In this document: positions 914 to 38,447 of the stretch, in pieces
Position numbering within the stretch: the first letter of the stretch is position 1
How the letters are laid out: each line of letters opens with the position of its first letter
NCBI GenBank assembly: GCA_046753605.1
Contig: JBHHTZ010000002.1
Location: 1 to 38,447 of the forward strand
DNA from: Anaerolineae bacterium
GTDB taxonomy: Bacteria; Chloroflexota; Anaerolineae; Epilineales; JAANWY01
Reading direction: 5' to 3'
DNA: 38,447 nt
Notes under the pieces: model-generated
Databases searched by the model: none
What the model was told of the DNA's origin: nothing
Seen by the model: only the letters and a program-made list of their open reading frames with translations
Position numbers and translations under genes: made by a program

Positions 914-3900
914 TCAGTGCGATGAAATCACATACCTCATCACAAGTCCGTTGTTTCCAACAACCCAACCGTTGCTGAGGGTATCATCCATCCAGATGTC
1001 ATTAAGCTGTGCGGTGTATGTATAAGCGACTTGTTCCCACTGGTGGCCTCGGTACCGGTAGATGGCACCATCCGCCCGCTCGTCGCTGCCTATGGCCGCC
1101 GCCGCCCAGACATCGGTAGGTGTGTGGACATGCAAGCCGGTAATGCCGCCGCCATCATAGGCCCCACTCACCAGGGATTCTGTCCACCGTCCGTTGAAGT
1201 ATCGGACAAGCACGCCGTCGCCGCCGGCTGCCCAGCCTTCTGTGGGCGAATACATGGTGATAGTGCGCAAGGGGCCGGCAGCTCTCAGCAGTGGAGACTC
1301 GGTCCACCCGCCCTTGAAGGCGTAGATATAGCCGTCCGCCGTGATGGCCCAGCCCTGGTCAGGGGCCGGCATGAAAAGATCGGTGTACGGCAAACCAGTC
1401 CAGCGGATGCCGATACCAAAGTCCCATCGTTGTCCGTCCCAGTACAGGATGACGCCATCGTGGTGGCCCAATGCCCATGCCTCATTTGCCGAGAAGGCAT
1501 AGACGGACCAGAAGTCTTCGTCGCGCCCCAACATATCTGAGGGCATCTTCATTCTCAAGAAGTGGTTACCACCGTCGAGTGTTCGAAAGATTGTCTCACC
1601 ATCAGCGACGATGAACCCCACGCGGGCGTCCACCATGAAAATGTCCCGCAGTGTCATGGATCCCAATGTGTCCCATCTCCAGGTGTCACCACCGTCGTTT
1701 GTGCGAGCTATGAAGCCCTCCTCGCCCACGATAAACCCGTTCAGTGCATCGGTAAACGTGATGTCGTGCAGGTCTCGTTGTGGGAACTGTGGAATGTTGA
1801 CCTGGCGACAGGCTGGGTTTGTCGAGGTTGATTGACACCAGACACCTGTCGGGGGCGGTTCAGGCGTTGGAGTAACAGTTGGGGTAACAGTTGGCGTCGA
1901 ACTTGGAGTCGTCGTTGGTCGAATGGTAGGGGTGGTTGTCAGGGTGGGTGTTGGAGAGGGTGTGCCCGTGGGACTCGGTGTCCTGGTCAGTGTTTCTGTC
2001 GGCGGCGCCTCGGTCGGCGTACTTGTGCTGCTTGATGTGACTGTGGGGAGTAAGCATTCAACATGGGACTCACATGCCACGAGCCACTCACCTCTGAAGA
2101 GAGCCTCGACACGGACATGGGATCCCACTGGCGCCTCGATAACGGCGTAGCTCGGTGCTTCTTCTGGCAGGATTCCTATGATCCAGCCGTTCAGGTACAC
2201 TCGCCAATCGTCCACGGGTCGATCCGAGGTTATCGTCTGTTGCCTCATTTCCGGCGTACTTCCCGACCCACACCACCCGCCGCAGTCGAACTGTGGAGAG
2301 ATGCCGGCGGAGGGAGTTGCTGTTGCGGTGGGAAGATGGCCTGCCCGGTTACTGACCACCATCGGCAAGTAGACTCGCCGTGGGACGCGTACAGTAGGAG
2401 TCGCCGTCGGGGTGGCCGGCTGTTGGGTGACGACACCCGTGGGCGTCGAGGAGGGGCTGCTTGTCGCAGTGGGGCTGGATGGGGCAGGTGTCTCGGTACT
2501 TGTAGGTGTCGAGGAGGGGCTGCCTGTCGCGGTTGAGCTAGGCGGGGCAGGTGTTTCCGTACCCGTGGGCGTTGAGGAGGGGCTGCCTGTCGCGGTGGGG
2601 CCAGGCGGGGCCGGCGTACTCGTACTCGTTGGCGTTGGTGAGATTGGTTCGGTCGGGTGGAAGCGAAAGAGCCCCCACCCGTTGGTGCCTATCCAGACGT
2701 CGCCATCCGGTCCCACGGCGACGACCTCGATGTCGCCGCTCACCAGCCGGGAGTTGGCCGGCGACAAGCTCAGCCACTCGGCACCGTCCCGCGCCAGCTT
2801 GATCCCACCGGCGGTTTTCCTGGCCGCCTGGTCCTCTTGACCGTCCTGGTCAGTGTCCACGCCCCCACGCGAGGTTCCAGCCCACACGCCGCCCGTTGCA
2901 TCAACGGCGATGGAGGAGGTCCAGCCATCATGCTCGAACACCTCGTAGGACCAGGCCCCGCCCCGGTACCAGTTAACGACGGCGGGAACGTAGGGCCAAC
3001 TCCTGATGACATCCTTACGTGACATGTCAGTGGTCCCCCAGGTACCGACCCAAACCGTCCCATCGGGCCCAACAGCGATGCTTCGAGCGTCGCCCGTGAT
3101 GCCAGTTTCCACGTATGATTGGATTCCGTCAGCTTTCGTATACACCGTCCACTGCGCCGTTTCGTAGTCATAAGCGCCTACCCCTCCGCCCTGGATGCGG
3201 GCGCCCGTGAAGTACGGCGCGCTGGATACCCACAACTGACGGCGACTGCAATCCGGGACGATGCCGGTGATGAGATTCGAGGGGAGGGGTGGGAATCTGA
3301 ACGGATCCCACCAGATATCGGTGACCGGGTTGAAAGGGTCGTCAGCCGTGGCCAGAATGTCGATGCCGGCGCCGGTGCTATCCTGCAGGTTTCCCAGACC
3401 GATCCATAGCTCCCCGCTACAGCCCACCGCCAGGGCAGTCACACTGTTTGAGCGCAAGCCGGCCGACTCTCCACCGGTGTTCTCGACCGTTCGGATGGCC
3501 CAATGATCACCGTCGAATACACTGAGGCCGCCGTCGGTGTACTCCCGTCTGGAGGAGTCCCACGTGGCTTCGCGAGTGCCGAACCACACGTGGCTACCAT
3601 CGACTTCCAGAGCGACGACATTGTTGCCGGCCAGCCCGGTCCAGGGGGGCTGCCCATCGTCATCAGTGCCTTCCTTCGTGAACTGAGACCACGTGTCATC
3701 CTCTGCATCCAGGGTGCCCTGGGTATTCAGGAGCAGCGCTCCCACACCGTATCGGCGTTCCCGCCGATGCCCCGTGCCCACCCACACCTGGTTCGCCCAC
3801 CGGGTGCCAGCTTCGCCGAAAGCGATGGCCGTCACGTAGTTGCTCGCAATGCCAGAAACAGCCGTGGTCAACCGGCCCTCGAACGCGCCCGTCGTGAGCC

Positions 3901-5455
3901 CGAACCGGCTGATGCCGTACGCCCGGCCGCTGACCCCGCCGGTGCCCATCCACATCACGCTCCCCTGTCCTGACCCCCCTGAAGCGACGCCGGCCACCAT
4001 GACCTGCACGCGGTCTCCCGCCAGACCATTGCCGGTGGTGATGGGCTCGCCGGGCACCGGATTCTTGTCGTTCCAGGTGTCGTCCCGCCGGTTCCCGGGG
4101 GTCCCATTGTGATCCAGGACCGAGATGCCTCGGCCCCAACCGTTGAGACTTCGATACGTACTGAACCACACCGTGTTCCCCCATTCGGGATCGTCTGGTG
4201 GGCCAAAAGCGATGGCATCTACGAAGTTGGTTTCAAGGCCATCAGCCGTAGTGAATCGATCGCGATCGGGACGCAAGATAGTCGCATCCCGCCGAAAGAC
4301 GAGAACACCCCGGCCGCGCATGGCGGCCCAGATATAGCCGAGCGTGTCCATCCGCAACTGCGTCACGACACACCCAAACTGGCTGTTTTCCTCACAGTTC
4401 CACGTCTCCCAGGTGTCATCATCCGTCTCGGGGGTGCCGGCATGGTCGAGCCGGCTGAGACCGCCGTGAGCCTCGACCCACTGGCCCGGGATATTCTCAT
4501 CAGGTTGCTCGAAGAGCCAGTGCTGGCGAGTGGCCACCCAAATCCGGTTGCCGGGCACCGGCAGGATGTCAAGAATATTGTTGGACGCCAGGCCGAGTAT
4601 CACCTCGCCACGCCGCCTGGTGAGGGTATTCTCCAGCGTGTAGGTGTGCAGCCACACGTCGTCACCCGGCTCCAGCGTGCCCTGGGTGTCCAACTGGCTG
4701 AGCCCACCTCCCACGTAGGCCTCCAGCTCGGGGTCCCAGTACTGCGCCGAGCCAACCCACACGTGGCCGGCCTCGTCCAGCGCCACAGCCGTAACCTGGT
4801 TCGAGGGGAGACCGCCGTCCGTGCTTTGCTGCGTATAGGTGTACCAGATGTCATCAGCCTGGTCGGCGGTGCCGTTGTCATCCAGCACACTCAAGCCTCC
4901 GTCGGTGGCAAACCACTTGTGGCCGTGCGAGTCGATAGCGATGTCGTACACCGTGTTGCCGCCCAGACCGCTTTGGGGCTTCAGAAACTGGACGTAAGAG
5001 CTGTCGGTGGTATTCCAGCGGACGACGCCGCCAGCGCGGGTGCCGGCCCATATAACAGTGTGCCCCGAGGTCTCTCCCGAGCTTGTCGAAGCGGTGTCCT
5101 GATCCCCGCTCCGGGCCTGTCGAGGGGCTTGGCGAAGGGGGCCTGACGAAGGGTCGCCCTCGACTTCCAGAGCCAGGATGTCATCCCCGTTAGCGTACGT
5201 GTACCAGTGGCCTGTAGGGAGTGAGGGGGACCCGGTCTGGGCGGTGGAAGGCGTTGGTTGCAGCAAAAGAGGAAGAGACAGGAGCAGCGACAGGCTGAGC
5301 AGGAGGAGCGCGACACAAAGCCCAGGCGGACGAATAAACTTGCCCGCCTGAGTGGGTTCGCCACCAGAACACTTCCCCCGGCCAGGCCGGGGGAAGTGTT
5401 GTCTCATTCCACCTGGAGCGCTATGGCTGGCCAGGGCAGGCGGGAGGCAGCCCAT
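914..5455 (-). CDS. P1: secreted multidomain protein. Signal peptide, about 12-14 Reg_prop-type propeller blades, PT linker, 82-aa 4-Cys domain, second PT linker, BNR/Ycf48-like propeller.
   Basis: 1513-codon ORF. Candidate starts are ATG 5455 (GAGG 9 nt upstream, overlaps the G1 stop by 35 nt) or ATG 5407. Hydrophobic LCVALLLLSLSLLLSLPLLL segment. Repeated blades such as VYDIAIDSHGHKWFATDGGLSVLD, VTAVALDEAGHVWVGS...GGGLSQLD and IEVVAVGPDGDVWIGTNGWGLFRF. SPQFDCGGWC...ACESHVEC domain. Asp-box-like TNDGGDTW and TLDGGNHF in the C-terminal 320 aa. Confidence 0.85.
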   Translation of the reverse strand: MGCLPPALASHSAPGGMRQHFPRPGRGKCSGGEPTQAGKFIRPPGLCVALLLLSLSLLLSLPLLLQPTPSTAQTGSPSLPTGHWYTYANGDDILALEVEGDPSSGPLRQAPRQARSGDQDTASTSSGETSGHTVIWAGTRAGGVVRWNTTDSSYVQFLKPQSGLGGNTVYDIAIDSHGHKWFATDGGLSVLDDNGTADQADDIWYTYTQQSTDGGLPSNQVTAVALDEAGHVWVGSAQYWDPELEAYVGGGLSQLDTQGTLEPGDDVWLHTYTLENTLTRRRGEVILGLASNNILDILPVPGNRIWVATRQHWLFEQPDENIPGQWVEAHGGLSRLDHAGTPETDDDTWETWNCEENSQFGCVVTQLRMDTLGYIWAAMRGRGVLVFRRDATILRPDRDRFTTADGLETNFVDAIAFGPPDDPEWGNTVWFSTYRSLNGWGRGISVLDHNGTPGNRRDDTWNDKNPVPGEPITTGNGLAGDRVQVMVAGVASGGSGQGSVMWMGTGGVSGRAYGISRFGLTTGAFEGRLTTAVSGIASNYVTAIAFGEAGTRWANQVWVGTGHRRERRYGVGALLLNTQGTLDAEDDTWSQFTKEGTDDDGQPPWTGLAGNNVVALEVDGSHVWFGTREATWDSSRREYTDGGLSVFDGDHWAIRTVENTGGESAGLRSNSVTALAVGCSGELWIGLGNLQDSTGAGIDILATADDPFNPVTDIWWDPFRFPPLPSNLITGIVPDCSRRQLWVSSAPYFTGARIQGGGVGAYDYETAQWTVYTKADGIQSYVETGITGDARSIAVGPDGTVWVGTWGTTDMSRKDVIRSWPYVPAVVNWYRGGAWSYEVFEHDGWTSSIAVDATGGVWAGTSRGGVDTDQDGQEDQAARKTAGGIKLARDGAEWLSLSPANSRLVSGDIEVVAVGPDGDVWIGTNGWGLFRFHPTEPISPTPTSTSTPAPPGPTATGSPSSTPTGTETPAPPSSTATGSPSSTPTSTETPAPSSPTATSSPSSTPTGVVTQQPATPTATPTVRVPRRVYLPMVVSNRAGHLPTATATPSAGISPQFDCGGWCGSGSTPEMRQQTITSDRPVDDWRVYLNGWIIGILPEEAPSYAVIEAPVGSHVRVEALFRGEWLVACESHVECLLPTVTSSSTSTPTEAPPTETLTRTPSPTGTPSPTPTLTTTPTIRPTTTPSSTPTVTPTVTPTPEPPPTGVWCQSTSTNPACRQVNIPQFPQRDLHDITFTDALNGFIVGEEGFIARTNDGGDTWRWDTLGSMTLRDIFMVDARVGFIVADGETIFRTLDGGNHFLRMKMPSDMLGRDEDFWSVYAFSANEAWALGHHDGVILYWDGQRWDFGIGIRWTGLPYTDLFMPAPDQGWAITADGYIYAFKGGWTESPLLRAAGPLRTITMYSPTEGWAAGGDGVLVRYFNGRWTESLVSGAYDGGGITGLHVHTPTDVWAAAAIGSDERADGAIYRYRGHQWEQVAYTYTAQLNDIWMDDTLSNGWVVGNNGLVMRYVISSH
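1850..2053 (-). other. second Pro/Thr/Ser-rich linker of P1 (absent from P2 and P3)
   Basis: Translation LLPTVTSSSTSTPTEAPPTETLTRTPSPTGTPSPTPTLTTTPTIRPTTTPSSTPTVTPTVTPTPEPPPTG. Confidence 0.8.
2392..2656 (-). other. first Pro/Thr/Ser-rich linker of P1
   Basis: Translation HPTEPISPTPTSTSTPAPPGPTATGSPSSTPTGTET...TPTATPTV. Contains the 3 x 63-bp tandem repeat. Confidence 0.8.
2444..2632 (-). repeat. in-frame tandem repeat, 3 x 63 bp (21-aa units PAPPGPTATGSPSSTPTGTET / PAPPSSTATGSPSSTPTSTET / PAPSSPTATSSPSSTPTGVVT)
   Basis: Plus-strand units start at 2444, 2507 and 2570. Each opens gt(c/t)gaggaggggctgc(t/c)tgtcgc. Read directly from the sequence. Confidence 0.9.
5058..5160 (-). repeat. REP-like element array inserted in frame in blade 1 of P1 (about 32 extra codons relative to P3)
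   Basis: Contains gagcttgtcgaag (5079-5091) plus degenerate copies gggcctgtcgagggg and cctgacgaaggg. P1 reads EGDPSSGPLRQAPRQARSGDQDTASTSSGETSGHTV where P3 reads only QGDT. Confidence 0.7.
5368..5400 (-). repeat. 33-nt perfect GC-rich palindrome (16-nt arms aacacttcccccggcc / ggccgggggaagtgtt around one central base)
   Basis: Read directly. Lies 21 nt downstream of the G1 stop on the minus strand and inside the first codons of P1 (encodes QHFPRPGRGKC). No U-tract follows. Confidence 0.9.
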
Positions 5456-8400
5456 CAGGACCGACCTCTACCAGGAATCCGCCGTCGAATAGCGGGAAGG
5501 CTTCGAAAGCCTTGGACTCGTCGCCTGGGATGTCTGGATCAGACAGAACGCGACCGACGCGCTCCACCGCCACGGCCCCCAGGGCTACCCCTACGCCTTC
5601 CTGAGTCGGGTCACCGCCCTGCTGATTGGTGTAGGTGGCCGAGATCACCAGCGATCCCAGGAAGCCTGGTGGGATAATACCCCATTCGTCCAGATTGATG
5701 TACTCCACCTGTTTCTCATTCAACTTCTCGCACACGTAGTCGATCAGCCGGTTCTGATCGTAGATGAAGATGACGAAGTCGGTGAAGCCGGGATGGGGGT
5801 TCAGGTTCTGAATGGCCAACTCCGTGGACACGCCCCGGTTGCGCTTGGCCGCCAGCGGAACGGAGAGCACGCCGGTACCGCGGAATCCTCCCCGGCCGGG
5901 CCCCAGTTGCCAGTCATAGGAGCCCATCTCCTGCAGGGCGTTGTATAGGACCGCCTCCTGGCGCGAGGTCTTGGCCGGGTCGGTGTACTTCTCCAGCATG
6001 ACCACCGACAGGACGCGTGGGGCCGAGATCGCCGGATCACCCGGTGAGAACCAGTTCTGGGACTCGACGCGGGCCGAACCGACCCAGTTGCCCGGCAGGC
6101 CGGCAATCATCGGCAGGAAGAAGGTCTGGGAGCCGCGCGGACAGATCCAGTCAACGACGGTCTTGATGACGTCGCCACTATTGTCCAGGAAGTAGACCTT
6201 CACCTTGGCGTTGTACGTCGAGCTCAGGTTCTGCACCTGGATGCTGGTCTCCCAGCCCTGGTGCTCGCGGTAGATCAGCGGCGCGTAGTTCACCTGGGTG
6301 CCCAGGCTGAAGTTTAGAGGGTCATCTTGACCCACGTACACGTCAGCCGGCACGCCGTGGTAGGCGCCGAAGTGGTTGGCGCCCAGCGTATCTATAATCA
6401 CCCCCAGCGGCTGCGAGGCCGACAACCACGCTGAGCCCTGCCAACCAGGCCCTACGACTTCGTTCGGGTCAAATGGATAGGACTCGCCAGGGGCCAGGGA
6501 CAGGATGTCCCACACCACCGGCCGGATGCAGTCCCCCTGGCGCTGGAACCACAGCTCCACGGACGTGCACTCTTCACCCGAGTTCTGGACATTGATGATG
6601 CTGTTCATGCCGAAGTAGTCGGCCCAGACCAGAGGCGCGTAGTAGGCGAACCCGCCGGCCCGTGGGTCACGGAACCCCTCGCGGTCGGTGGAGATGCCTA
6701 CGTAGGCCGCACTGCTGTCCAGGTTGGGATCGACCACGTCCGGACACGTCCGGTTGACTGTGACAGCCAGCGGTTCGCCCGTGTGGGCACCGAAGTCAAG
6801 GACCAACTGCTCCCCCGGGAAATCGCCAATGGGGCCGAAGTAGGTGCCGCTCTCGCGATACGCCCGGTCAAACAGCAGCCACTCGTCGTGATTCTGCCGG
6901 ATCAACGGGAATAGCCGGCCACACGCCATGTCAGCGAAGATACGCTCGTTCCCGCGCTCATCTGTCACCAGGTCGGTCGCGTTCAGGGAGTACATGATGC
7001 CGGACCTGGCCCCTGCCGGCAGCAATCGGTTGGTGAAGGTCCAGGCACTGCCGGGGCGCAGGAGCCCGGTGCACTCGACCTTGAGCGGCCCAAAGGCCTG
7101 CGGCGGGCAGAATCCCGGTTCGCCCCACAGTACCAGCAATGCCTTGGTAAACTCGTTCCCCACATTCTGGACCTGGATCCAGGTCTCGCACTCGTCGGTG
7201 TTGATGGCCGGCAACTGAAGCCGCCAGTCCACGCCCTTGCACGGCGACTGACGCGACACCTCGAACCAGGTGGGGTCATCGTCGTCCCGAGGGTACTCGT
7301 CGTCGAAGCGCGGTCCGTCGAAGTGCGGTCCCTGGACGAAGTTCGTAGGCTCGACGCCGGCTGGGATCTCCGGCCAGCCCGGAGTCTCGGACCACCAGTA
7401 GACGAGACCAGCAGTGCCGGCATGGTTGTTGGCCTGGCGGTTGCTGGTAAAGTATTTGTTGGTGTCCGTGGGGTCGAACTGTGGGAACCGCTGGTCGAAC
7501 AGATCGATCTCGTTATAGTCCACCCAACCGTGGTTGAGGACGATGGTTTTCCCGCAGTGCACGCTGAACCCTGGCCCTGCTTCCATGTCTTTGATCCGCA
7601 CCTGGTAACGCACGCGCAGGGAGAAGGTGACAGGGATGGGCGGGTCATAAGTGACGCCGTTGAAGCGCAGCAGCTCGCCCTTGGGCGGGATGGCCAGCCT
7701 GGTAGCCACGCGGACCTCGTCGTCGCCCGTGTTGTTGCCCAGCGTGATCTCTCCGGGCAGCACGATGGCCGAGGGGTCGGTGATCTCAATCCAGGCGCCA
7801 CCGATCGCCGGCGCCTGTGTGCGGAGCAGGAGATCGTCGCCGAAGGCCAGGTCTGGTGGCTGCACGTCGGCATCAATGATGCGGCCGGTGACCGGATCAC
7901 GTCCGGAGACGTGGATGGCGGCGGTGACGCTGCCGTTGATCAGCTTCGCCGGCACCCACGGGTGATCCGGGTCGTCGTTGATGTAGTTGTACAGCCCATC
8001 GTAGAACACGACCCCCGTGGCCGAGATGGCGCCGGTATTGGAGATGTTAACCGTGTACTCGACGATGTCGCCGGCGGTCGGCTCGCCGTCCCCGTCGTGG
8101 TCATCGAAGATGCTCCAGTCCTTGGTGGTGTCTTCCAGCACCGGCAGGGCCAGGGTATCATGGAGCAGATCGGTGTCGCAGATGAGATTGGGGTCGAGAT
8201 CGTTGCAATAATCATCGCCGGAGGGCTCAATGCCAGGCAAGGGGGTGCTGTACTTGGTGCTGGGCACCGCATCCACCCGCGCCCGATTGGTGCCCAGGGC
8301 GATGATCTGGTTGTTCCCGGCCGGGAAGTCCACCGTGAAGCTGCGGATGATCAGGATGTGGTCGTAGTCGTCCGGCGTGCCCTTCGGGGCCAGGACGGCC

Positions 8401-10808: not shown

Positions 10809-10954
10809 GAGTGATTCTCCTCCTCAAACAACGTTCTAAGGGCCGGCGCCAGGCCGGCTGAAGCGCTGATTTCGCACTTTTGGCCTGAATTTGACAACCC
10901 AAGAGCAGGCTGAGTCGTACATCGGACTTCGGGCATCGGATGGGTGCATCTGCC

Positions 10955-12814: not shown

Positions 12815-12817
12815 AGC

Positions 12818-25996: not shown

Positions 25997-25999
25997 AGC

Positions 26000-28187: not shown

Positions 28188-28228
28188 GCAGGCAGTTCAT
28201 TTCAATTGAGAATGTGAGGAGGTCACAA

Positions 28229-28561
28229 ATGAAGAAGACTGTGATGGTTCTGCTGTCCGTCTTGTTGATCGCGCTCGTACTTGTGGTGGGGAGTACCCGA
28301 TGGGGCGGTAACGCCCTGGCTCAATCGCCGGGCAAGCAGGTTGTTGTCTTGAGGTGTTCGGTCAGCGCCCCCGTCTCTTCCATCCCCATCGTCATGTCTG
28401 CCAGTGGAAGTGCCGGCGCTCCGGTTGTCATCAGAGGGACGACCTGCGCGCAGGCCCTGGCAGACCTGCTGAGCGATGGCTTCGGGATACAGGCCGTCGA
28501 GTCTGCCGGCCGAGATAATGACACGGACCTGTACTACACTCTGGCGTCGGGTGGCCCGTGA
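28229..28561 (+). CDS. S2: identical copy of S1
   Basis: Same SD/ATG context. Its stop abuts the P3 stop at 28562-28564. Confidence 0.8.
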   Translation: MKKTVMVLLSVLLIALVLVVGSTRWGGNALAQSPGKQVVVLRCSVSAPVSSIPIVMSASGSAGAPVVIRGTTCAQALADLLSDGFGIQAVESAGRDNDTDLYYTLASGGP

Positions 28562-31500
28562 CTAGCACCCAACATCTGACTCGCAGGCCAGGAGCCACTG
28601 GCCCTGGAACAGGGCCTCGATGCGAACGTGGTATCCCACGGGGGCCTCGACGACGGCGTAAGTTGGGTATTCTTCTGACAGTAACCCGATCGCCAGGCCG
28701 TTCACGTACATACGCCAGTCGTCCACGGGTTGGCTCGATGTCACGGTCTGCTGTCTCATGTCCGCCGAGCCTCCCAATTCACACCACCCTCCACAATCGA
28801 ACTGAGGGGAGGTAGCAGGCGGCGTTGGCGCTGCAGCGAGCTGGCTCACCCAGTTGCTGGCCACCAGCGGCAAATAGAGTTGCCGGGACGAGGTTCCCCC
28901 AGGGGTCGCTGTCGGTGTCGGCGTAGGTGTCGGTGTAGGGGGCAGCGGCGTAGCAGTGCTGGTGGGCGTGCTGGTGGGTGTTGATGTCGGAGCAGGCGAG
29001 GTCGGCGTGCTCGTCGGGGTTGGCTCGGTCGGTTCCTGGCCCGCGTGGAAGCGCATCAAACCCCATCCGTTGGTGCCGATCCAGACATCACCATCCGGCG
29101 CTGCAGCGATGACTTCGACGTCGCCGCTCACCAGCGGCGAATTGGCCGGCGACCAGCTCGCCCACCCGGCCCCGGCACGCGTGAGCTTGATCCCGCCGGC
29201 AGTCTTTTTGATCTCCGTATCCTCTGCCTGGCCATCCCGATCGCCGTCCATGCCACCGCGCGAAGTGCCGGCCCAGACGGTGCCGGCGGCATCCACGGCG
29301 ATAGACGAAACCCAGCCATCGTGCTGGAAGGAGGCGGAATCCCAGGCGCCACCCCGGTACCAGTTGATCGTCGCCGGAACGTAGGGCCAGTTGGAGATAT
29401 CCGTACTCGTGGTGTTGGTCATGCCCCAGGTGCCGGCCCAGATCGCCCCCTCGGGACCAACGGCGATGCTTCGGGCGTCGCCGGTGACGTTCCGACTGGC
29501 GTATGATTGCAGGCCATCGGCCGTCGTGTAGGCTGTCCAGGCCTGGGCAGCCTCGTCATACCGGCCCACGCCGCCCCCCATGTTGCCGAAACCGGCAAAG
29601 TGAGGCGCACCGGACACCCATACCTGGCCCTGGCCGCAATCTGGCGCAATGTCAGTTATGAGGTCCGAAGGAATCGCGGGGTATCTGAATGGGTTCCACC
29701 AGGTATCGTTCTCCAGGTTGTGGGGATCGCCCCCCGTGTCCAGCACATCGATGCCGGCCCCCTGGTTCTCCTGCAAACTCCCCAGCCCAATCCACACCTC
29801 CCCATGGCACCCCACCGCCAGCGCCGATACCCCGTTCGACCGCAATCCCGTTGACTCACCCCCCGTACTCTCCACAGTGCGAACGGTCCACCCCTCACCG
29901 TCGTACACGCTCAACCCCCCGTCGGTGTACCCATGGGCCTCCGAATCCCACATCGCCTCCCGCGTGCCGAACCACACGTTGTCCCCAGCCACGGCCACCG
30001 CCACCACGTTGTCCCCAGCCAGCCCCGTCCACGGCGGCTGCCCATCGTCGTCGGCGCCGGCCTTGGTGAACTGCGTCCACGTATCATCGTCCCCCCCCAG
30101 CGTGCCATGGGTGTCCAGTAGCAGGGCGCCCGCCCCATACCGCCGCTCCCACCGATTGCCCGTGCCCACCCACACCTGGTTCTCCCAGCGCGTGCCGGCC
30201 TCCCCGAAGGCCACATCGGTGATGTAGTTGCTGGGGATGCCCGTGGCAGCCGTGCTCAGCGGGTCGTCGAAGGCCCGCCTGGTCAGATCGAAGGGGCTGA
30301 TGCCGTACGCCCGACCACTGATCCCGCCGGTCCCCATCCAGATGACGTCGTTGCCGGCCAGCATGGCCTGCACCCGGTTGCCCGCCAGACCATCCCCCGT
30401 GGTGAGGGGCTGGCCGGCGGTCGGGTTTTTGACGTTCCACGTGTCGTCGCTGCGGTTGCCGGGCGTGCCGCCGTGATCCAGCACCGACACGCCGTACCCC
30501 TGGCCGTTGAAGCTGTGGTAGCTGCTGAACCAGACGGCGTTGGCCCATTCGGGGTCATTCGGCGGGCCAAAGGCGATGGCATCCACGAAGTTGGACGCCA
30601 GGCCATCGGCGGTGGTGAAGCGATCGCGATCCGGGCGCAGGCTGGCGGCGTCGTAGCGGAAAGTGAGCACGCCCCGGCCGCGCATGGCGGCCCAGATATA
30701 GCCCAGGCTGTCCATGCGCAGTTGGGTGACCACGCACCCAAACTGGCTGTCATCCTCGCAGTTCCAGCTCTTCCAGGTGTCATCGTCCGGCTCCGGCGTG
30801 CCGGCGTGGTCCAGCCGGCTGAGACCACCATGGACCTGGACCCACCGGCCGGGGATGTTCTCGGTGGGTTCTTCGTACAGCCAGTGCTGCCGGCTGGCGA
30901 CCCACACGCGACCCTGTCCTGAGCCTGTCGAAGGGTTGCCCGGCACCGGCAGGATGTCGGTGATGTTGTCGGATGCCAGCCCCAGAATCTGTTGACCCTG
31001 CTGGACGGTGAGGGTGTTGTCCAGGGTGAAGGTGTGGAGCCACACATCGTCACTCGGGTCCAGGGTGCCGTGTGGGTCCAGCTCTGTCAGGCCACCACCG
31101 GTGTAGGCTTCTGCATCGGGGTCCCAGTACTGGGAAGAGCCGATCCACAGGCGGCCGGCCTCATCGACGGCCACAGCGGTGACCTGGTTGGAGGGGAGTT
31201 GGCCGCCGGTGTTCTGCCGGGTGTAGGTGTGCCAGGTGTCGTCGGCTTTGCCGGGAGTGCTGTTGTCATCCAGCACGCTGAGGCCGCCGTCGGTGGCCAG
31301 CCACTTGAGGCCGTGGTCATCGATGGCGATGTCGTAGACTATGTTGCCGGCCAGGCCGTCCTGGGGCTTGAGGAACTGGACGTAGGAACCAGTGGCCGTG
31401 TCCCAGCGCACAACGCCGCCGGCCCGCGTGCCGGCCCACAGGGTGTCACCCTGGCGGGCCAGAGCCAGGATGTCGTCGCCGTTGGCGTAGGTGAACCACT

Positions 31501-31774: not shown

Positions 31775-31794
31775 TCAGATAATGTCTCGTGCTC

Positions 31795-31848
31795 GTAGTA
31801 ACGACTTCAGTCGTTTTGAGCGGGTTGAACCACTGAAGTCGTTACTAC
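31795..31848. repeat. REP-type hairpin: 16-nt perfect inverted arms gtagtaacgacttcag / ctgaagtcgttactac with a 22-nt loop
   Basis: Read directly. Lies in the G3-P3 spacer. The left arm also contains the mini-palindrome aacgac-ttca-gtcgtt. Confidence 0.85.
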
Positions 31849-31899
31849 AAATCTCGGATGTTATTCTGAACATCTATTAGATGCTCAGATCAGTAGCCA

Positions 31900-31928
31900 A
31901 GTATACCACGAGCGCTCAGGATAATCAA
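31900..31928 (-). promoter_or_regulatory. candidate sigma70-like promoter for P3: TTGATT (31928-31923), 17-nt spacer, TATACT (31905-31900)
   Basis: Read from the reverse complement. The -10 hexamer is the same as in the S promoter. Sits in the AT-richer 181-bp spacer. Confidence 0.35.
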
Positions 31929-31955
31929 GCTTCTCAACTTTCAACTTCCATGACC

Positions 31956-34900
31956 CTACGGCTGGCCGGGACATTGGACGGGTTCCTCTGGTTTGAATCG
32001 GTTGAAGAGTGGGAAAGCCTCAAAGGCCTTGGACTCGTCGCCGGGCAGGTCCGGCTGGGACTGACTCCGGCCCACGCGCTCCACGGCCACGGCGCCCAGC
32101 GCGGCACCGCCCTTCTGATTGTTGAAGTTGGCTGAGATCACCACAGAACCCAGGAAGCCTGGCCGGATGACGCCCCATTCGTTCAGATCGATGTACTCGA
32201 CCTGCTTCTCATTCAGTTTCTCGCACACGTAATCTAGTATCCCGTTCTGATCGTAGACGAAGATCACAAAGTCGGTGAAGCCAGGATTCGGGTTCAAGTT
32301 CTGGATTGCCAGCTCCGTCGTTACACCGAACGCGCCCTTTGCCACCAGCGGCACGGACAGCACGTCGCTGCCGCTGAAGCCGGTGGTCTGGCCCGGCCCC
32401 ACCTGCCAGTCAAAGGAGCCCATCTCTTGCAAGGCGTTGTACACCACCGCCTCCTGACGGGCGGCCTTGGCCGGGTCGGTGTACTTCTCCAGCAGCACCA
32501 CCGACAGGATGCGTGGCGATGATATCGCCGGGTCGCCCGGTGAGAGCCAGTCCTGGGACTCGATCCGAGCGGAACCGATCCAGTTACCGGGCAAGCCGGC
32601 TATGACCGGTAGGAAGAAAGTCTGCGAGCCACGTGGGCAGATCCAATCGACGACGGTCTTGATAACGTCGCCGCTATTATCCAGGAAGTACACCTTGACC
32701 TTGGCGTTGTGGGTCGAGCTCAAGTTCTGGACCTGGATGCTCGATTCCCACCCCTGGTGTTCGCGGTAGATGAGCGGCGCGTAGTTCACCTGGGTGCCCA
32801 GAGTGAAATCACGATCCCCGAAGCCTTCGAAGATGTCGGCCGGCACGCCGTGGTAGGCGCCGAAGTGATTGGCGCCCAGGGTATCTACGACGACGCCCAT
32901 GGGCTGGGAGGCGCGCAGCCAGATCGACCCCTGCCAGTTGGGCCCTACGACCTCGTTCGGGTCGAATGGATAGGACTCGCCAGGGGCAATGGACAGGATG
33001 TTCCACACCACCGGTCGGATGCAGTCCCCTTGCCGCTGGAACCACAGCTCGACGGAGGTGCACTCGACACCCGAGTTCTGGACGTGGATGATGCTGTTCA
33101 TGCCAAAGTAGTCGGCCCACACCAACGGTGCGTAGTATGCGTACTGGCCGGCCCTCGGGTCGCGGATACCTTCTCGGTCGGTAGAGATGCCGACGTAGGC
33201 CGCGCTGCTCTCCAGGTTGGGATCGACGGGATCGGGGCAGGTGCGGTTGACGGTCACCGCCAGCGGCTCACCCTGGTGGGCGCCGAAGTCCATCATCGTC
33301 TGCTGACCTTGGTTCCCAATCGGTCCGAGATAGATGCCGCGCGTGCGGTACGCCTCGTCGAACTGAGCCCACTGGTCGTAATCCTGCCTGATAGCGGTGA
33401 ACAACTCCGTACAGGCGACGTCGGCGAAGGTCTGCAGGTTGCCCTGTCTATTGACAATCTTGTCGGTGGCATTCATGGAGTACATGATCCCCGACCTCGC
33501 ACCCGGCGGCAGCAGCCGATTGGAGAAAGACCACGCGCTGCCGGGACGCAGGAGGCCGGTACACTCGACCTTCAATGGACCATACGCTTGCGGCGGACAC
33601 GCACCCGGCTCACCCCACAGCACCAGCAGCGCCTTCGTATCCACGTTGCCGACGTTTTGGACCTGAATCCAGGTGTCGCATTCGTCGGTGTTCAGGGCCG
33701 GCAGTTGCAGCCGCCAGTCCACCCCCTTGCACGGCGTCTCGACCACCGCCATGTCCGTCGCCAGGGCGACCGGCACGCTAAAGAAGGGCGTTCGCCCCCG
33801 GTTCACGGCTTGCGCTGTGACGACGGCCGTGTCTGGACGATCGTTGCAGTCCACCATGATGTCGCTACTCACCGTCGTGCTGACAATGAAGCTGGTGCCT
33901 GGCGGGAACGGCAGGTTGGGATCAACATCCGGGTTGGCGTGGAATGTCTCCTCGAAGATGACGACCGGTCCCGAACGCGTGACGACCGTGTCGGTCACGA
34001 TGATGGTATCCAGGTAGGTCGCGCCGGTGTTGGTCAGCTCGTAGCAGTAGGTCACCGGTTGTCCCAGGAACCCGATGGCCACGTTGTTTGTCCCGGGGCA
34101 CGTCCCATCCAGCGAAACCGTCTTGTCGACCTGGATCTCCGGACAGACGATGCTCGTGTCCTCGTCGTCTGTGTTGTTGGTCAGGTCTGGGTCTTCCGTT
34201 GGCGTGGGCGCGAAGGCTGCGCCGGCAAGTGGAGGCCACACGGCGTCGTTGCGGCGGGTCTCTACGGACGCCGTGTTTGTGATCGTCCCCCCACATTCGG
34301 CATCCTGGGTCACGATCACGCCGATCTGAATCGTTACGGCATCGCCGCCGGCGTTGATCCGCCCGAACTGCTTGACCATGTTATTGTCTTCGTCATCGCC
34401 GGCAAGCACGGTGATCCGACCGTCGTCGCGGATTTCCTCCGTGATGCCGCGCGTGCCGGAGATGACGACCGTGACCAGGGCCGGGTCCAGGGCGATACCG
34501 TCCTGCGGAAGCAGGTCTACCAACGTGACCTCCGCCGCATCCGAAGGACCGTGGTTAGCAATGGTGATGGTGTAGGTGATGGTGCCGCCTGGCGAGACCG
34601 GATCGCCAACCTGGAAGCCGGCGCCATCGGCTTTGGTAATCTCAAGGTCCGCTTCCGCGTTCACCCGCGTACACTCGTCGTCGCGGTCCGCAGCGCTGCC
34701 TACAGGCTGCCCTTGATCCAGCAGGTCGGCGGTGATGTCGGCCCGGTTATGAGCGAAGTGGGGGTAGCCGGTGGCCTGGAAGAGTGGGTCACAGACCGAA
34801 TCTGGATCGGTTATCGTGGTGTCGCCTCGACCATTCAAGACATAACCGGATTCCACATCGGCGATCAAACGGAACGTGAAGCTGTCGCCCACGTTGATGA

Positions 34901-37900
34901 TGCCGGTGTTCGTGTAAACCACGGTGTTGCCTTCGAGGATCTCGTCCACGCGCACGATCTGCTGGGTGATGTTCCCGTCGCCGGCGATCACCGAGCAGGT
35001 GACCCGGTCATTCGGATCGAGGGACTCACAGCGATCGAAGATCACACCCAGCGGGAGTGTGTCCGTCACAACCGAGTTCGCAGCCTGGGACGGCCCGTTG
35101 TTTCCGAAACTGATGGTGTATTGCAGCTCGGTGCCGGCAATCACCGGATCGGGGAAGTCGGATTTCACAACGAATAGTTGCTGTGCGCGATTCACACCCG
35201 TTTGCTCGTTGAAGGTGTTGTCGCCCGTGTTCGGGTCCAGTGTGTCGCTGCTCACCGAGACCTGGTTGTCCAGTGTCGCCGGCGCCGCCGGGTTGACGCG
35301 CACCAGGATGGTGAACGTCTTGACATCGCCGAATGGCATATCTCCCAGAGCGCAGGTGAGCGTGTGCTCATCGATGGGGTTCAGACTACAGCTCACACCC
35401 GTCGCAAAGGGATCGCGGATGCGCTCGAACGTCACTTCCTGTGGCAGGACGTCCACCACGACCACGTCGATGGCGTCGGAGGGGCCGGTGTTGGTGACGG
35501 TCACGGTGTACTCCAGCAGCTCGCCGGCCACCACCGGGTCCGGGTTGTCGGTCTTGGTCACCACGAGGTCCGCCCAGGCATCCACCGTGGTCAGGTTCGT
35601 CGCGCGGTCGTTGGCGTTGTTGTCATCGAAGAGGTCAGAGAAGACCAGGGCGTCGTTCTCCAGAATAGTTCCCCCGGGCAGGCTCGGGTCCACACGGAGC
35701 GTGACCTGAACCGTGGTGGAGGCCAGCGGCGCCATCGTTCCCAGACCGCAGGTCAGCTTGTCCAGCGGCTCGCCCGGTGTGCCGGTATCGCAGTCCCCTG
35801 AGCCGGCGTCGAAGCCGGTCACCACGACACCAGGCGGCAACCGGTCCTGGATGACCACATTCTCGGCTGTGGACGGCCCGTTGTTGGTGACGGTCAGCGT
35901 GTAGACCAGGGTGCGGCCGGCTGTGACCCGGTCCGGCACCAGGCTGACGACCCCGCCCGGCTGGCCGTCCACCTGCACCTCACCGACAGCGCTCTTGTCG
36001 ATCTCCATGTCCGCCACGTCGATGATGTCGTGCAACACGAAAGCGTCGTTGTTGTCCAGGTTGGGGTCTGGCTGCTCGCTGAGAACCGACGCAACGTTGT
36101 TGAAGTTCTGGGCGTGATCCAGACCACGCACCCGTACGGTCAGCAGCCAGCGACCGGAGTTTGGCGGCCCATCGGCCGCCAGGACTTCCAACCCCCCGGT
36201 GAGGGTACAGTCCAGCTCCAGACGCTCGCTGATATTTTGCACGCCGGTCTGTGGGTCCACCCCGGGTGGAGGCGGCGCTGCACCCGGCGGCCACGCAGTT
36301 GCCGTCACGGTCACGCCGGGCGTGGGTCCCGGTATGCCTGCACAGAACGTCTCGCGGTCGCTGGAGATATCGACCAGGTCGAAGGTTGCCGCCGTCTGCA
36401 AGACATCCTTAATCGCGACACCTTCGGCGGCGCTGGGACCCAGGTTGTCAACGACAACGGTGTAGGTCAGAATCTCATTCGCCCGCACCTCGCCATCCGG
36501 CTTGCCGAACTTGCGGATGTGCAGGTCGGCTTCGCCCTCCACGAAGTTCCTGAAGCTCCCCACGTTGTTCCCCGGCACGGGATCGCCCAGGGTGGTCGTG
36601 CTGGTGACGATGGAGACGTTGGTGATGACGGTGCCGGCCGGCGTGGCCGGGTCCACCAGCGCCCAGATGTCGAAGTGGTGGCTGGCGCCGGCGGCGAGTG
36701 TGCCGATCTCGCAGCGCAGCGGCGTGTTCGGCTCCTGGGTCATCGTAGTCACCGCTTCCTCCACCTGGCCCTGGATTTCGCCCGACGGGAAGTCGGAAGT
36801 CTGGACGATGACCTGGAAGCTGGTGGGGTTGGCGAGAAGCGCCGCCACCAGGGTTGGACTGATGATGCTGCCCACCAGCGCGTTGGGTGGGTCGAAAACG
36901 GGTGGAGGCCCACTGTACAGTTGTGCCGTCAACGTGCCATTGGTGAGGATCGTACCCGTGATGTTGTCGATGTCCGTGACTTCCACGGCGAATTGCACCT
37001 TGTTCGTGTCGGTGATGAGCACGAAGGTGGCCAGGCCCGCTGCCACTGTCGGGTTGCCCAGCGTGTCCGACAGCGGTGCTCTCAGGCCAACCAGCGTCTC
37101 CGGCCGGGTGCACATGGGGCTATTGGTGTCGATTTCGTAGTCCACTTCGTCCGGCAGGAGGTCGAAGACGGTCACGTCCTGCGCGTCGGACGGGCCGTTG
37201 TTCTCGACCCAGAGGGTGTATTTCACCTGCTCGCCGGCCGGCACCTTCACCGGCTCGCCGACTTTGCTGATCTCCACATCGGCCTGGGTCTCCACCTGGG
37301 TCGTCTCCTGGACCTGGTTTGGCGTCGGGTCCCCTACCTCCGGAACGTTGGGGTCCGGGGTGAGGCTGGACACGGTTGCCGTGTTGGTGATCGTGCCCGC
37401 CGGCGCGCTGGCGCTAACCAGGCTGGTGATCACCAGCGTGATGGTCTTCCCCGGCAGGATGTTGCCAAAGCCGCAGTCGATGATGTTGGCCGGCGTAGTG
37501 CGGAAGGAGCACGTGGCGGCCGGCTCATTCACCACGTTGACTTGCAGACTGGTCAGCGCCGAGGGCAGCTCGTCCAGCAGTGTCACATCCTCGGCCGTGG
37601 ACGGGCCGGCGTTGGAAATCGTGAGGGTGTATTCCAATTGCTGGCCGGCGATTACAAAATCGGGTCGATCGATTTTCTGCACCCCCAGGTCGGCCTGGGC
37701 GAGTACCCTAACCAATGCATCGAACACGATATTGTCGTCCGTATCGGGGTCGAACGTATCGCTGGTGAGGTGGGCGTCGTTGGGCAGGAAATCTGCGAAC
37801 CCCGTGTTCGGCTGGGTTGCCACGTAGCTCGGATCAATGTCAGCCGTGATCGTGATGATGGCAGTATCGCCCGGCGCCAAGTTGCCGACCTGGCAGATCA

Positions 37901-38447
37901 GGGGCTCATTCGGATCGCCCGGCGTGCCGACGTTGCATTGCCCCCCACCCACCGGAGGCGTCACCGCGACTGCAGTTACCGATTCCTGAACCAGGCCTTT
38001 TGGCAAGGTGTCCACGACGGCGACGTTCTCGGCCGTGCTTGGGCCGCCGTTCGTCACCGTGATCACCCACGTCACGCTCTCGCCGGCCAGCACTGTGAGG
38101 GAGTTGCCGTCCGGGTTCGAGCCGGCGTCCTGGCCAATCTTCGTCATGCCCAGGTCCGCCGTGGCGGTTACGCTGATGAAGTCGGTGGCGCGGTTGTTGG
38201 AGGTGTCCGGGTCGGGCGTGGCGGTCTGCGGGCCGGCGGCTCCATCCGGGTCCAGGCTGAACACGTTGACCTCGTTGTTCACGTCCTGGGCCTGGTTGGC
38301 GCGCACCGTCATCTGGATGGTCCAGCGCCCGTTCCCCGGGGGGTCGCCCTGGGGTTCCAGAGACTGGTTCAGGCTACACGTGACGAGGGTCCCGCCGGAT
38401 ATGGCGGAGGTGGTGCAAGAGTCTGTGCGGTTGGGATCATCATCAAC
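31956..38447 (-). CDS. G3: giant DUF11-repeat surface protein, 5'-truncated by the window edge (over 2160 aa visible), same head as G1/G2 on a different stalk
   Basis: The track ORF starts at an internal ATG 38312, but I translated 38313-38447 in the same frame and found no stop. At least 9 DUF11-type openings: TADLGMTK, QADLGVQK, QADVEISK, EADLHIRK, VADMEIDK, WADLVVTK, QQLFVVKS, EADLEITK, PEIQVDKT. Head at 31959-33737. Stop TAG at 31956-31958. Confidence 0.9.
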   Translation of the reverse strand, partial: VDDDPNRTDSCTTSAISGGTLVTCSLNQSLEPQGDPPGNGRWTIQMTVRANQAQDVNNEVNVFSLDPDGAAGPQTATPDPDTSNNRATDFISVTATADLGMTKIGQDAGSNPDGNSLTVLAGESVTWVITVTNGGPSTAENVAVVDTLPKGLVQESVTAVAVTPPVGGGQCNVGTPGDPNEPLICQVGNLAPGDTAIITITADIDPSYVATQPNTGFADFLPNDAHLTSDTFDPDTDDNIVFDALVRVLAQADLGVQKIDRPDFVIAGQQLEYTLTISNAGPSTAEDVTLLDELPSALTSLQVNVVNEPAATCSFRTTPANIIDCGFGNILPGKTITLVITSLVSASAPAGTITNTATVSSLTPDPNVPEVGDPTPNQVQETTQVETQADVEISKVGEPVKVPAGEQVKYTLWVENNGPSDAQDVTVFDLLPDEVDYEIDTNSPMCTRPETLVGLRAPLSDTLGNPTVAAGLATFVLITDTNKVQFAVEVTDIDNITGTILTNGTLTAQLYSGPPPVFDPPNALVGSIISPTLVAALLANPTSFQVIVQTSDFPSGEIQGQVEEAVTTMTQEPNTPLRCEIGTLAAGASHHFDIWALVDPATPAGTVITNVSIVTSTTTLGDPVPGNNVGSFRNFVEGEADLHIRKFGKPDGEVRANEILTYTVVVDNLGPSAAEGVAIKDVLQTAATFDLVDISSDRETFCAGIPGPTPGVTVTATAWPPGAAPPPPGVDPQTGVQNISERLELDCTLTGGLEVLAADGPPNSGRWLLTVRVRGLDHAQNFNNVASVLSEQPDPNLDNNDAFVLHDIIDVADMEIDKSAVGEVQVDGQPGGVVSLVPDRVTAGRTLVYTLTVTNNGPSTAENVVIQDRLPPGVVVTGFDAGSGDCDTGTPGEPLDKLTCGLGTMAPLASTTVQVTLRVDPSLPGGTILENDALVFSDLFDDNNANDRATNLTTVDAWADLVVTKTDNPDPVVAGELLEYTVTVTNTGPSDAIDVVVVDVLPQEVTFERIRDPFATGVSCSLNPIDEHTLTCALGDMPFGDVKTFTILVRVNPAAPATLDNQVSVSSDTLDPNTGDNTFNEQTGVNRAQQLFVVKSDFPDPVIAGTELQYTISFGNNGPSQAANSVVTDTLPLGVIFDRCESLDPNDRVTCSVIAGDGNITQQIVRVDEILEGNTVVYTNTGIINVGDSFTFRLIADVESGYVLNGRGDTTITDPDSVCDPLFQATGYPHFAHNRADITADLLDQGQPVGSAADRDDECTRVNAEADLEITKADGAGFQVGDPVSPGGTITYTITIANHGPSDAAEVTLVDLLPQDGIALDPALVTVVISGTRGITEEIRDDGRITVLAGDDEDNNMVKQFGRINAGGDAVTIQIGVIVTQDAECGGTITNTASVETRRNDAVWPPLAGAAFAPTPTEDPDLTNNTDDEDTSIVCPEIQVDKTVSLDGTCPGTNNVAIGFLGQPVTYCYELTNTGATYLDTIIVTDTVVTRSGPVVIFEETFHANPDVDPNLPFPPGTSFIVSTTVSSDIMVDCNDRPDTAVVTAQAVNRGRTPFFSVPVALATDMAVVETPCKGVDWRLQLPALNTDECDTWIQVQNVGNVDTKALLVLWGEPGACPPQAYGPLKVECTGLLRPGSAWSFSNRLLPPGARSGIMYSMNATDKIVNRQGNLQTFADVACTELFTAIRQDYDQWAQFDEAYRTRGIYLGPIGNQGQQTMMDFGAHQGEPLAVTVNRTCPDPVDPNLESSAAYVGISTDREGIRDPRAGQYAYYAPLVWADYFGMNSIIHVQNSGVECTSVELWFQRQGDCIRPVVWNILSIAPGESYPFDPNEVVGPNWQGSIWLRASQPMGVVVDTLGANHFGAYHGVPADIFEGFGDRDFTLGTQVNYAPLIYREHQGWESSIQVQNLSSTHNAKVKVYFLDNSGDVIKTVVDWICPRGSQTFFLPVIAGLPGNWIGSARIESQDWLSPGDPAISSPRILSVVLLEKYTDPAKAARQEAVVYNALQEMGSFDWQVGPGQTTGFSGSDVLSVPLVAKGAFGVTTELAIQNLNPNPGFTDFVIFVYDQNGILDYVCEKLNEKQVEYIDLNEWGVIRPGFLGSVVISANFNNQKGGAALGAVAVERVGRSQSQPDLPGDESKAFEAFPLFNRFKPEEPVQCPGQP
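31959..33737 (-). other. G3 C-terminal head (593 aa), roughly four-fifths identical in protein to the G1/G2 head by eye
   Basis: TPCKGVDWRLQLPALNTDECDTWIQVQNVG...AFEAFPLF...CPGQP is collinear with the G1 head. All four IxVQN modules and the Cys positions are retained. Confidence 0.8.
36762..37085 (-). other. degenerate CHRD-like domain nested inside a DUF11 repeat of G3
   Basis: LRAPLSDTLGNPTVAAGLATFVLITDTNKVQFAVEVTDIDNITGTILTNGT...LVAALLANPTSFQVIVQTSDFPSGEIQGQV. This follows the CHRD pattern G.A.F.L...L.Y.L.V...(AHIH)...AL...YVNVHT..fP.GEIRGQ, but the AHIH motif is lost. Confidence 0.5.

Follow-up and report, generated by a model that had tools for sequence, protein, structure and literature searches.

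A predicted all-beta C-terminal module of secreted DUF11 proteins in Chloroflexota and its clade-specific pairing with genes for propeller proteins

In a stretch of 38,447 nucleotides (nt) from an uncultured Anaerolineae bacterium (assembly GCA_046753605.1, contig JBHHTZ010000002.1, positions 1 to 38,447), referred to below in its full length as the window, genes for long proteins with DUF11 repeats (G) are each followed, on the same strand, by a gene for a secreted propeller protein (P). The reading that we favour, tentatively and at somewhat less than even confidence, is that G forms a DUF11 surface fibril attached to the envelope by its C-terminal module (here called the head) and that P is a clade-specific, glycan-binding accessory. 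Surface fibrils that come with an accessory gene are in themselves a known kind of arrangement, and what is undescribed is the head module, the 4-Cys domain of P and the clade-specific pairing of G and P. An earlier note on this DNA, made from its letters alone, had proposed an undescribed cell-surface system; this stands for the head domain and the G-P pairing, and falls for the general kind, of which GhlA, a giant DUF11 fibril, is an example (PMC13319060). The locus matters because the build-up of the unusual multilayered envelope of filamentous Chloroflexota, its outer protein layer and its appendages is largely unknown. The head family, which is absent from Pfam, NCBIfam and the PDB, is found C-terminally in numerous surface proteins, giant fibrils among them, and the head together with its glycan-binding-like propeller partner provides concrete candidates for study in cultured relatives such as Litorilinea, Caldilinea and Ardenticatena. 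The G-P 'system' is facultative rather than universal, and its importance is therefore limited.

All large genes of the window are carried by the minus strand, in the order G3, P3, N2, H2, G2, P2, N1, H1, G1, P1, where N and H encode an NHL-repeat protein and a beta-helix protein, respectively. The G and P genes are the following (aa, amino acids):

G3, 31956..38447, minus strand: DUF11 stalk protein of at least 2163 aa with CHRD and RrgB-like isopeptide domains; head at 31959-33740; N-terminus beyond the window.
G3-P3 spacer, 31775..31955, minus strand: 181 nt with a 20-bp perfect hairpin and an 11-bp hairpin, no U-tract.
P3, 28562..31774, minus strand: secreted Reg_prop double propeller of 1070 aa with a PT linker, the motif RQLYLPLVASN (28853-28885) and a 4-Cys Ig/FN3-like domain (28565-28894).
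G2, 18603..23990, minus strand: 1795 aa, identical to G1.
P2, 15380..18637, minus strand: mosaic propeller gene with a YLPLV-type motif (15671-15703).
G1, 5421..10808, minus strand: signal/anchor segment, DUF11/DUF7507 stalk and C-terminal head of about 609 aa (5424-7250).
P1, 914..5455, minus strand: 1513 aa, with a Reg_prop double propeller, a PT linker, the motif RRVYLPMVVSN (2348-2380) and a 4-Cys domain (2054-2395).
C-terminal part of P1, 917-1870, minus strand: Ycf48/PSII_BNR-like propeller, preceded by a second PT linker.

The stops of G1 and G2 overlap the longest open reading frames (ORFs) of P1 and P2 by 35 nt, and for G1-P1 this overlap suggests translational coupling. The tight G-P gaps described earlier are thus found for G1 and G2, and not for G3-P3 with its spacer of at least 181 nt and its hairpin. 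The G1-P1 arrangement is reproduced in an independent ENA assembly of a related strain (about 93% nt identity; L098, where here and below loci with heads and their relatives are cited by L-numbers and P homologues by P-numbers). In L098 the P start codon ATG that overlaps the G stop is kept, and the alternative start at Met17, which would leave a gap of 13 nt, is CTG; a scaffold gap of N's makes this assembly unusable for the length of the G-P spacer. N-terminal hydrophobic stretches of the signal or anchor type were seen in G1, H, N and P, in line with the Sec-type N-termini that had been attributed to all members; G3 has no in-frame upstream stop inside the window, and its N-terminus, with any signal peptide, lies outside. 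As the earlier note had stated, no catalytic, kinase or transporter domains were detected in the proteins of the window with Pfam and NCBIfam.

In the case of the G proteins, DUF11 (PF01345/TIGR01451) scored above the curated cut-off in both G1 (154.9 bits, 4 stretches) and G3 (381.8 bits, 9 stretches), next to DUF7507 and, in G3, the CHRD and isopeptide domains listed above. The shared C-terminal head, noticed earlier from the sequence alone, is borne out as a module of about 609 aa (residues 1187-1795 of G1) that is 78% identical to the C-terminus of G3, whereas the stalks are 31% identical. No sequence match to the head was found in Pfam or NCBIfam, and a search of its profile against PDB sequences gave nothing at E<=1. 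At the level of structure, Foldseek returned no whole-domain analogue from the PDB, i.e. a local TM1070-like sandwich for one repeat (TMt 0.68) and arrays of low TM, and its hits in the BFVD viral library (TM <=0.15) were meaningless. The AlphaFold2 (AF2) model of the head, based on an alignment of 32 sequences, is a confident all-beta monomer (pLDDT 84, pTM 0.88); seven cysteines are invariant, and profile-profile comparison of head segments with hhalign gave probabilities of 91% for u2-u3, 51% for u2-u4 and 42% for u3-u4. According to the model and these comparisons, the head is a module of about 600 aa, all beta, that consists of about four related beta-sandwich repeats.

Close homologues of the head number at least 384, all of them from metagenome-assembled genomes (MAGs) of Chloroflexota (Anaerolineae, Caldilineae and Ardenticatenales) and all annotated 'hypothetical'. 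A search with a hidden Markov model of the head recovered 1,346 representatives of 50%-identity clusters at E<=1e-3 and 432 at E<=1e-30. Copies per genome are many, with at least 9 loci in Ca. Epilinea brevis, and judged by these searches the module defines a large Chloroflexota-specific family. Its architectures are diverse: the head may follow a signal peptide directly and make up the entire protein (about 600-680 aa), it may be C-terminal to DUF11, S8 peptidase, SdrD_B, CarboxypepD_reg, LTD or P-domain modules, it may be repeated in tandem (up to three per protein), and it is found at the extreme C-terminus of proteins of 4,000-4,800 aa; in L012, a P-domain is C-terminal to the head. The giant G-type gene is divided into two ORFs in both L005 and L012, and in L005 the P gene is split as well, probably as a result of long-read frameshift errors.

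The description of P as a Reg_prop propeller with PT linkers was recovered in the domain scans (PF07494, 56-66 bits). The P profile retrieved from the PDB the sensor 4a2l of a hybrid two-component system (HTCS; E 1e-39), the structures 3v9f and 3ott, and PorZ (5m11, E 2e-7), and by this homology P is a free-standing double propeller related to the HTCS glycan sensors of Bacteroides and to PorZ. The relationship does not extend to membership of either family. As an orthologue of PorZ, P was rejected on its scores against NF052228 (43.7 and 31.1 bits, cut-off 260) and on its lack of the C-terminal domain (CTD) belonging to type IX secretion systems (T9SS), and as an HTCS sensor on the lack of any histidine kinase, receiver or DNA-binding domain in P1, P2 and P3; the propeller homology stands in both. 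Similarly, the C-terminus of P1 matches PF14870 (PSII_BNR; 41.6 bits, cut-off 27) and scores 36 bits against the NCBIfam equivalog for Ycf48, which has a cut-off of 326, so that judged by these scores the domain is Ycf48-like in fold and is not the photosystem II factor. About 60 stand-alone P orthologues (at least 38% identity) are present in Anaerolineae, with two recurrent architectures, one of about 930-1,080 aa and one of about 1,280-1,460 aa that includes the Ycf48-like domain. The earlier opinion that free-standing, secreted Reg_prop propellers are unusual was therefore overstated, the more so as PorZ is itself one (PMC5121618).

The 4-Cys domain has been kept in the closest P orthologues only. 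It is modelled by AF2 as a generic Ig/FN3-like sandwich of about 80 aa without a specific relative in the PDB, and a word-indexed search for its homologues yielded one fragment only. The closest relative of the P proteins, P0121 (L095 74-4039, from MAG K_2_bin.73), has two copies of it, in two tandem cassettes of PT linker, YLPLI motif and 4-Cys domain, whereas P1 has a single such cassette together with the Ycf48-like domain. Contrary to the earlier note, not every P ends in the 4-Cys domain, for P1 continues into the second PT linker and the Ycf48-like propeller.

The generality of the G-P pairing was assessed from both sides. For the heads, one genome per species was scanned, which gave 75 loci that were then searched for P, N, H and the 4-Cys domain, a head copy being counted as informative if it had at least 3 kb of downstream sequence. 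A P-type gene was found for 6 of the 68 informative copies of this first set and, with the loci that were added later, downstream of 12 out of 74, leaving 62 without one. The earlier note had itself named heads that usually lack a neighbouring P-type gene as the outcome that would speak against its proposal; it is this outcome that was found. Co-directional genes downstream of heads without a P (53 heads) form a mixed set: each Pfam family was matched by three of them at most, and Reg_prop by none. In the reciprocal test, a metagenome scan for P, a head was directly upstream in 4 of 13 informative P loci (9 without). Sequences like N and H were present in 2 and 4 of the 75 head loci, respectively, and because such genes rarely accompany heads, N-H-G-P is not a conserved unit.

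Where the two genes do occur together, the arrangement is uniform: every P near a head lies directly downstream of it and on the same strand, with spacers of 30-600 nt in other genomes. The P genes concerned encode proteins with 28% to 66% identity to those of the window, and the N-termini of the head proteins differ (DUF11 versus SdrD_B/CarboxypepD_reg). When 92 head copies were placed on a neighbour-joining tree, those linked to P fell in three or four clades, i.e. the window with L098, L005 with L007/L076, L012 (to which L035 was assigned by adjacency only, its split head not being on the tree), and L050/L062/L083/L086/L089. All five informative members of the last clade are P-linked; they are SdrD_B/CarboxypepD_reg head proteins, and their P is only 28% identical to that of the window. 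Short and long P genes stand in tandem downstream of heads in L062, L050/L086 and L083. Tandems of two P genes, one short and one long, of which the long one has the Ycf48-like domain, are also found in L096 and L097 (relatives with 54-57% identity; L096 2870-3283 and 5366-14017, L097 3073-13843). They are interleaved with genes for extracytoplasmic function (ECF) sigma factors and flanked by such genes and by those for PMT_2/YfhO transferases. In L099 a P3-like gene is in convergent orientation to the PMT-like gene that the window has as well; no heads are present near these close P relatives in L096, L097 and L099. Based on these comparisons, the association of G and P is clearly non-random and yet clade-specific.

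In the reading that we favour, the window would be a recently duplicated island of paralogous genes whose secreted products are structural components of the cell envelope in an Anaerolineae-class member of the Chloroflexota. G would begin with a Sec signal or anchor, continue as a stalk of DUF11 Ig-like domains strung like beads and end in the conserved C-terminal module of about 600 aa, with this module as the cell-proximal end for attachment or assembly that fixes G to the unusual outer glycan or protein layers of the filaments, and with the stalk projecting outward from the envelope. The PT linker of P would be O-glycosylated by the PMT_2/TMEM260-like transferase encoded next to it, and P would bind an envelope glycan and help to attach or decorate the fibril as a clade-specific accessory, in a role parallel to that of the anchoring genes ghpB/C that follow ghpA in Aureispira. 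We infer both the orientation of the fibril and the role of P. A module for anchoring or assembly is preferred over a variable tip because the head is better conserved than any other part of G, is usually C-terminal, is present in many copies and is fused to unrelated passengers, proteases among them.

Several points weigh against this reading. Firstly, G1 has no distinct N-terminal tip domain, its hydrophobic segment running straight into DUF11. Secondly, the N-terminal hydrophobic stretch of GhlA has been predicted by its authors to be transmembrane, which would place the C-terminus distally (PMC13319060). Thirdly, proteins that consist of a head alone are hard to explain as pure anchors. 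In addition, cooperation between G and P is not intrinsic to either family because most heads lack a P and most P lack a head, and co-transcription of G and P is not assured because of the 30-600-nt spacers elsewhere and the strong hairpin between G3 and P3. The first three points would equally suit a head at the far end of a fibril that is held in the membrane by its N-terminal hydrophobic segment and crosses the envelope with its DUF11 stalk, the head then binding a conserved target such as other filaments, prey, particles or P, as would the compact, Cys-rich, multi-sandwich body that AF2 predicts. We nevertheless regard a distal tip as somewhat unlikely. The tips of adhesins are usually variable, whereas the head is the best conserved part of G; that it is common to proteins with unrelated N-terminal modules, including S8 proteases, is the pattern of an anchoring module; the end of the hydrophobic segment of G1 (ARA|FG) looks like a cleavable signal peptide; and GhpA, the analogue with a solved structure, has its C-terminus on the side of the cell.

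The counts given above bear on a second alternative, namely, that the adjacency of G and P is without functional meaning, envelope genes being clustered in islands that duplicate, and the pairs found elsewhere being inherited synteny. The majority of heads and of P loci that are unpaired, the ECF sigma factors and PMT_2/YfhO transferases that take the place of heads beside close P relatives, and the ready duplication evident in the window itself would all fit it, as would the two near-identical head paralogues of a single Ca. Epilinea brevis genome, L010 and L012, of which only L012 has a downstream P. On the other hand, P was never observed upstream of a head, on the opposite strand or at a distance; the arrangement persists down to 28% identity of P and across different architectures of the head protein; one clade is linked in all of its five members; and the overlap of the G1 stop with the P1 start is conserved. 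On balance, we consider a meaningless adjacency to be unlikely.

As a third alternative, the head family could constitute a self-assembling, S-layer-like subunit on filamentous Chloroflexota, with the G-type proteins as lattice subunits decorated by stalks, for which the size, phylum restriction and copy number of the family, its head-only and tandem-head members (up to three), its compact all-beta module and the lattice-like protein layer, of unknown identity and composition, on the shared outer layer of the Litorilinea filament (PMC13319060) might be invoked; it is very unlikely, as the AF2 model of the head is a monomer and at least nine divergent paralogues per genome would be unusual for a main S-layer protein.

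The remaining features of the window are listed below.

N2, 26000..27961, minus strand: N-terminal transmembrane anchor, domain of about 220 aa without assignment, and NHL propeller; identical to N1.
H2, 24137..25996, minus strand: beta-helix protein with a CSLREA N-terminus, Chlam_PMP repeats, a choice-of-anchor Q domain and a flexitail-like tail; identical to H1.
N1, 12818..14779, minus strand: membrane-anchored NHL propeller protein of 653 aa.
H1, 10955..12814, minus strand: choice-of-anchor Q beta-helix protein of 619 aa that starts 3 nt past the N1 stop.
Small ORF, copy 2, 28214..28561, plus strand: 115 aa, convergent with P3; offset copy of 15032-15379.
Small ORF, copy 1, 15032..15379, plus strand: 115 aa, with a signal peptide and the ribosome-binding site GAGGAGG; oriented divergently to N1 and convergently to P2.
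TMEM260-like/PMT_2 gene, 3' end, 1..903, plus strand: convergent gene at the left window edge.
Repeat copy A, 5208..18130, no strand: perfect tandem direct repeat of 12,923 nt.
Repeat copy B, 18390..31312, no strand: separated from copy A by the 259-nt P2 junction zone.

Self-comparison of the window revealed that 5208-18130 and 18390-31312 are a perfect direct repeat of 12,923 nt (offset 13182), and because of this G2, H2 and N2 are exact copies of G1, H1 and N1. P2 is a mosaic: its first 248 nt are the same as in P1, and from 18130 down to the stop it has the sequence of P3. The junction zone between them (18131-18389, 259 nt) contains 132 positions common to P1, P2 and P3, 77 shared with P1 only, 31 shared with P3 only and 19 that are private to P2. 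A simple crossover of P1 and P3 is ruled out as the origin of P2 by these 19 private substitutions, which also argue, as far as the letters of one assembly can, against an assembler that walked a graph cycle twice. Public assemblies hold no record of the exact P2 chimera protein, and the duplication is thus without independent support. Judged by the repeat, the window contains three G-P pairs, of which G3-P3 and G1-P1 are older and the third is a recent copy, so that the threefold G-P pair of the earlier note is correct as gene layout and reduces to two as independent pairs, while the N and H genes that were said to precede the pair in two cases do so in one, doubled by the repeat. Its proposal of a recent duplication of about 13 kb, with G3-P3 as an older pair, agrees with the perfect repeat. 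The iteration would accordingly have two sources, an old duplication of the G-P pair (G3-P3 versus G1-P1) and a very recent segmental duplication of 13.2 kb via the homologous P genes.

The spacers in the window measure 3 nt from N to H (confirming the gap reported before), 146 nt from H to G and 600 nt from P to N. The last of these gaps holds the 115-aa gene on the plus strand, which had been overlooked; it has no Pfam match and no homologue among 99 related loci. N contains NHL repeats (74.9 bits) and scores 79.5 bits against the ScyF equivalog with its cut-off of 350, by which it is an NHL protein but not ScyF. H matches the choice-of-anchor Q family NF041518 (86.5 bits, cut-off 25). Its tail had been described as dockerin-like; the tail alone gave no Pfam match, to dockerin or otherwise, at E<=1, and this assignment was rejected. 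The sole match of the tail is to flexitail (NF041520; 17.9 bits, E 0.004), which lies below the cut-off of 40 and makes it a possible remote relative of that family; the literature retrieved for 'flexitail' consisted only of unrelated papers on antibodies. A scan of the whole window against Rfam gave no match, and matches to promoter and terminator consensus sequences were not above those in shuffled sequence.

The product of the gene at the window's left edge has 61% identity to a TMEM260-like/PMT_2 member of the protein O-mannosyltransferase family in L095, over the C-terminal 350 aa of the latter, and 84% to its equivalent in L099. The L095 gene adjoins the P orthologue there, and a gene of this kind keeps synteny with P, in convergent orientation, in three relatives (L095 4040-7147, L099 7603-9960 and L097 13840-23843), L097 having a run of PMT_2/YfhO genes beside its P genes. 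Because a PMT_2/TMEM260-like gene is conserved next to P, O-glycosylation of the PT linker is suggested.

In 58 of 120 P homologues (P0121-P0240) the PT linker is followed by a tag-like motif, [RK]x0-3[YFWH]LP[LMFIV][LVIA]x[RKN], e.g. RQLYLPLVASN or ...RLYLPLVLR*, which is situated at most 15 aa from the C-terminus in 20 of these 58. The same motif forms the end of 5 out of 259 head-family proteins (P0293, P0321, P0322, P0356 and P0359), and the N-terminal strand of the head resembles it (QVHLPILNF; WRLQLPAINT in G1). From its distribution, the YLPLV-type motif may be a lineage-specific signal for sorting or processing. At the nucleotide level, the short dispersed repeat CTTCGACARGCTCRGGA occurs in five exact copies in the window, versus 0.02 expected, all of them on the minus strand and in frame within P genes (5075-5091, 17735-17751, 18281-18297, 18303-18319 and 30917-30933), where they give rise to inserted loops, for example NPSTGSGQG or PSSGPLRQA...SSGETSG; two of the five are inside the 259-nt P2 junction zone, and the repeat recurs in L036, L095, L097, L098 and L099. 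The G3-P3 spacer folds with a minimum free energy of -69.4 kcal/mol (z -6.2) and might serve as an attenuator or processing site, or represent a repeat element.

Among the systems to which the locus can be compared, PorZ (5M11) is a component of the T9SS attachment complex and a surface double propeller of the Reg_prop type that binds A-LPS (PMC5121618, PMC8545088). P shares with it the free-standing double propeller, but lacks a T9SS CTD, belongs to an organism without T9SS context and, besides its PT linker and YLPLV motif, carries a domain of the 4-Cys and/or Ycf48-like kind. The best relatives of P at the sequence level are the HTCS sensors of the BT4663 type (4A2L/4A2M). The periplasmic sensor domains of Bacteroides HTCS are glycan-binding double propellers; P differs from them in being secreted as a stand-alone protein, without the part that comprises transmembrane segment, kinase, receiver and AraC domain.

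In the case of G, the nearest system within the phylum is GhlA of Litorilinea aerophila (Caldilineae), a protein of 6,596 aa with 49 DUF11 domains that forms three-stranded, polar, grappling-hook-like filaments, on which protein-sized densities have been left unassigned (PMC13319060). GhlA and G are both secreted proteins with consecutive DUF11 Ig-like domains and an N-terminal hydrophobic segment; GhlA forms surface filaments, as is proposed for G. They differ in size: G has 1,795 aa (G1) and at least 2,163 aa (G3, cut by the window) with roughly 4-9 DUF11 domains detected by Pfam, so that both fall short of the about 6,000 aa and some 50 Ig-like repeats by which grappling hooks are recognized. 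GhpA of Aureispira has an N-terminal hook, a stem of Ig repeats and a C-terminal sorting domain by which it is held at the cell, and its anchoring partners GhpB/C are encoded directly downstream of ghpA (bioRxiv 10.1101/2024.01.29.577165). It resembles G in Sec secretion, the Ig-repeat stem, the conserved C-terminal end and the accessory gene directly downstream. GhpA, the protein of a diderm, makes use of a T9SS CTD and of PorP/PorE homologues, and the partner of G is neither a barrel nor an OmpA protein but a propeller; no T9SS CTD was matched in G by Pfam or NCBIfam, its C-terminus being the head of about 600 aa with an unrelated fold.

With respect to modular logic, the head resembles the triple CWB2 modules (the Cwp proteins of Clostridioides difficile) and SLH of monoderms, i.e. 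conserved multi-repeat modules for anchoring to the cell wall that occur in many paralogues per genome and on diverse passengers, including proteases and adhesin stalks. To go by general knowledge of these modules, there is no relationship in sequence or fold, the head being made of about 600 aa of beta-sandwiches with a putative capacity for glycan binding. A bolder extension of this comparison, which we think quite improbable, is that the head is the founding example of an undescribed, phylum-wide module for envelope attachment or lattice formation, the counterpart of SLH, CWB2 or the T9SS CTD, with the PorZ-like P, the YLPLV tag and the neighbouring O-mannosyltransferase-like enzymes as parts of the machinery by which such proteins are fixed to the outer layer; if true, such a module would serve the atypical multilayered envelope of the filamentous Chloroflexota throughout the phylum.

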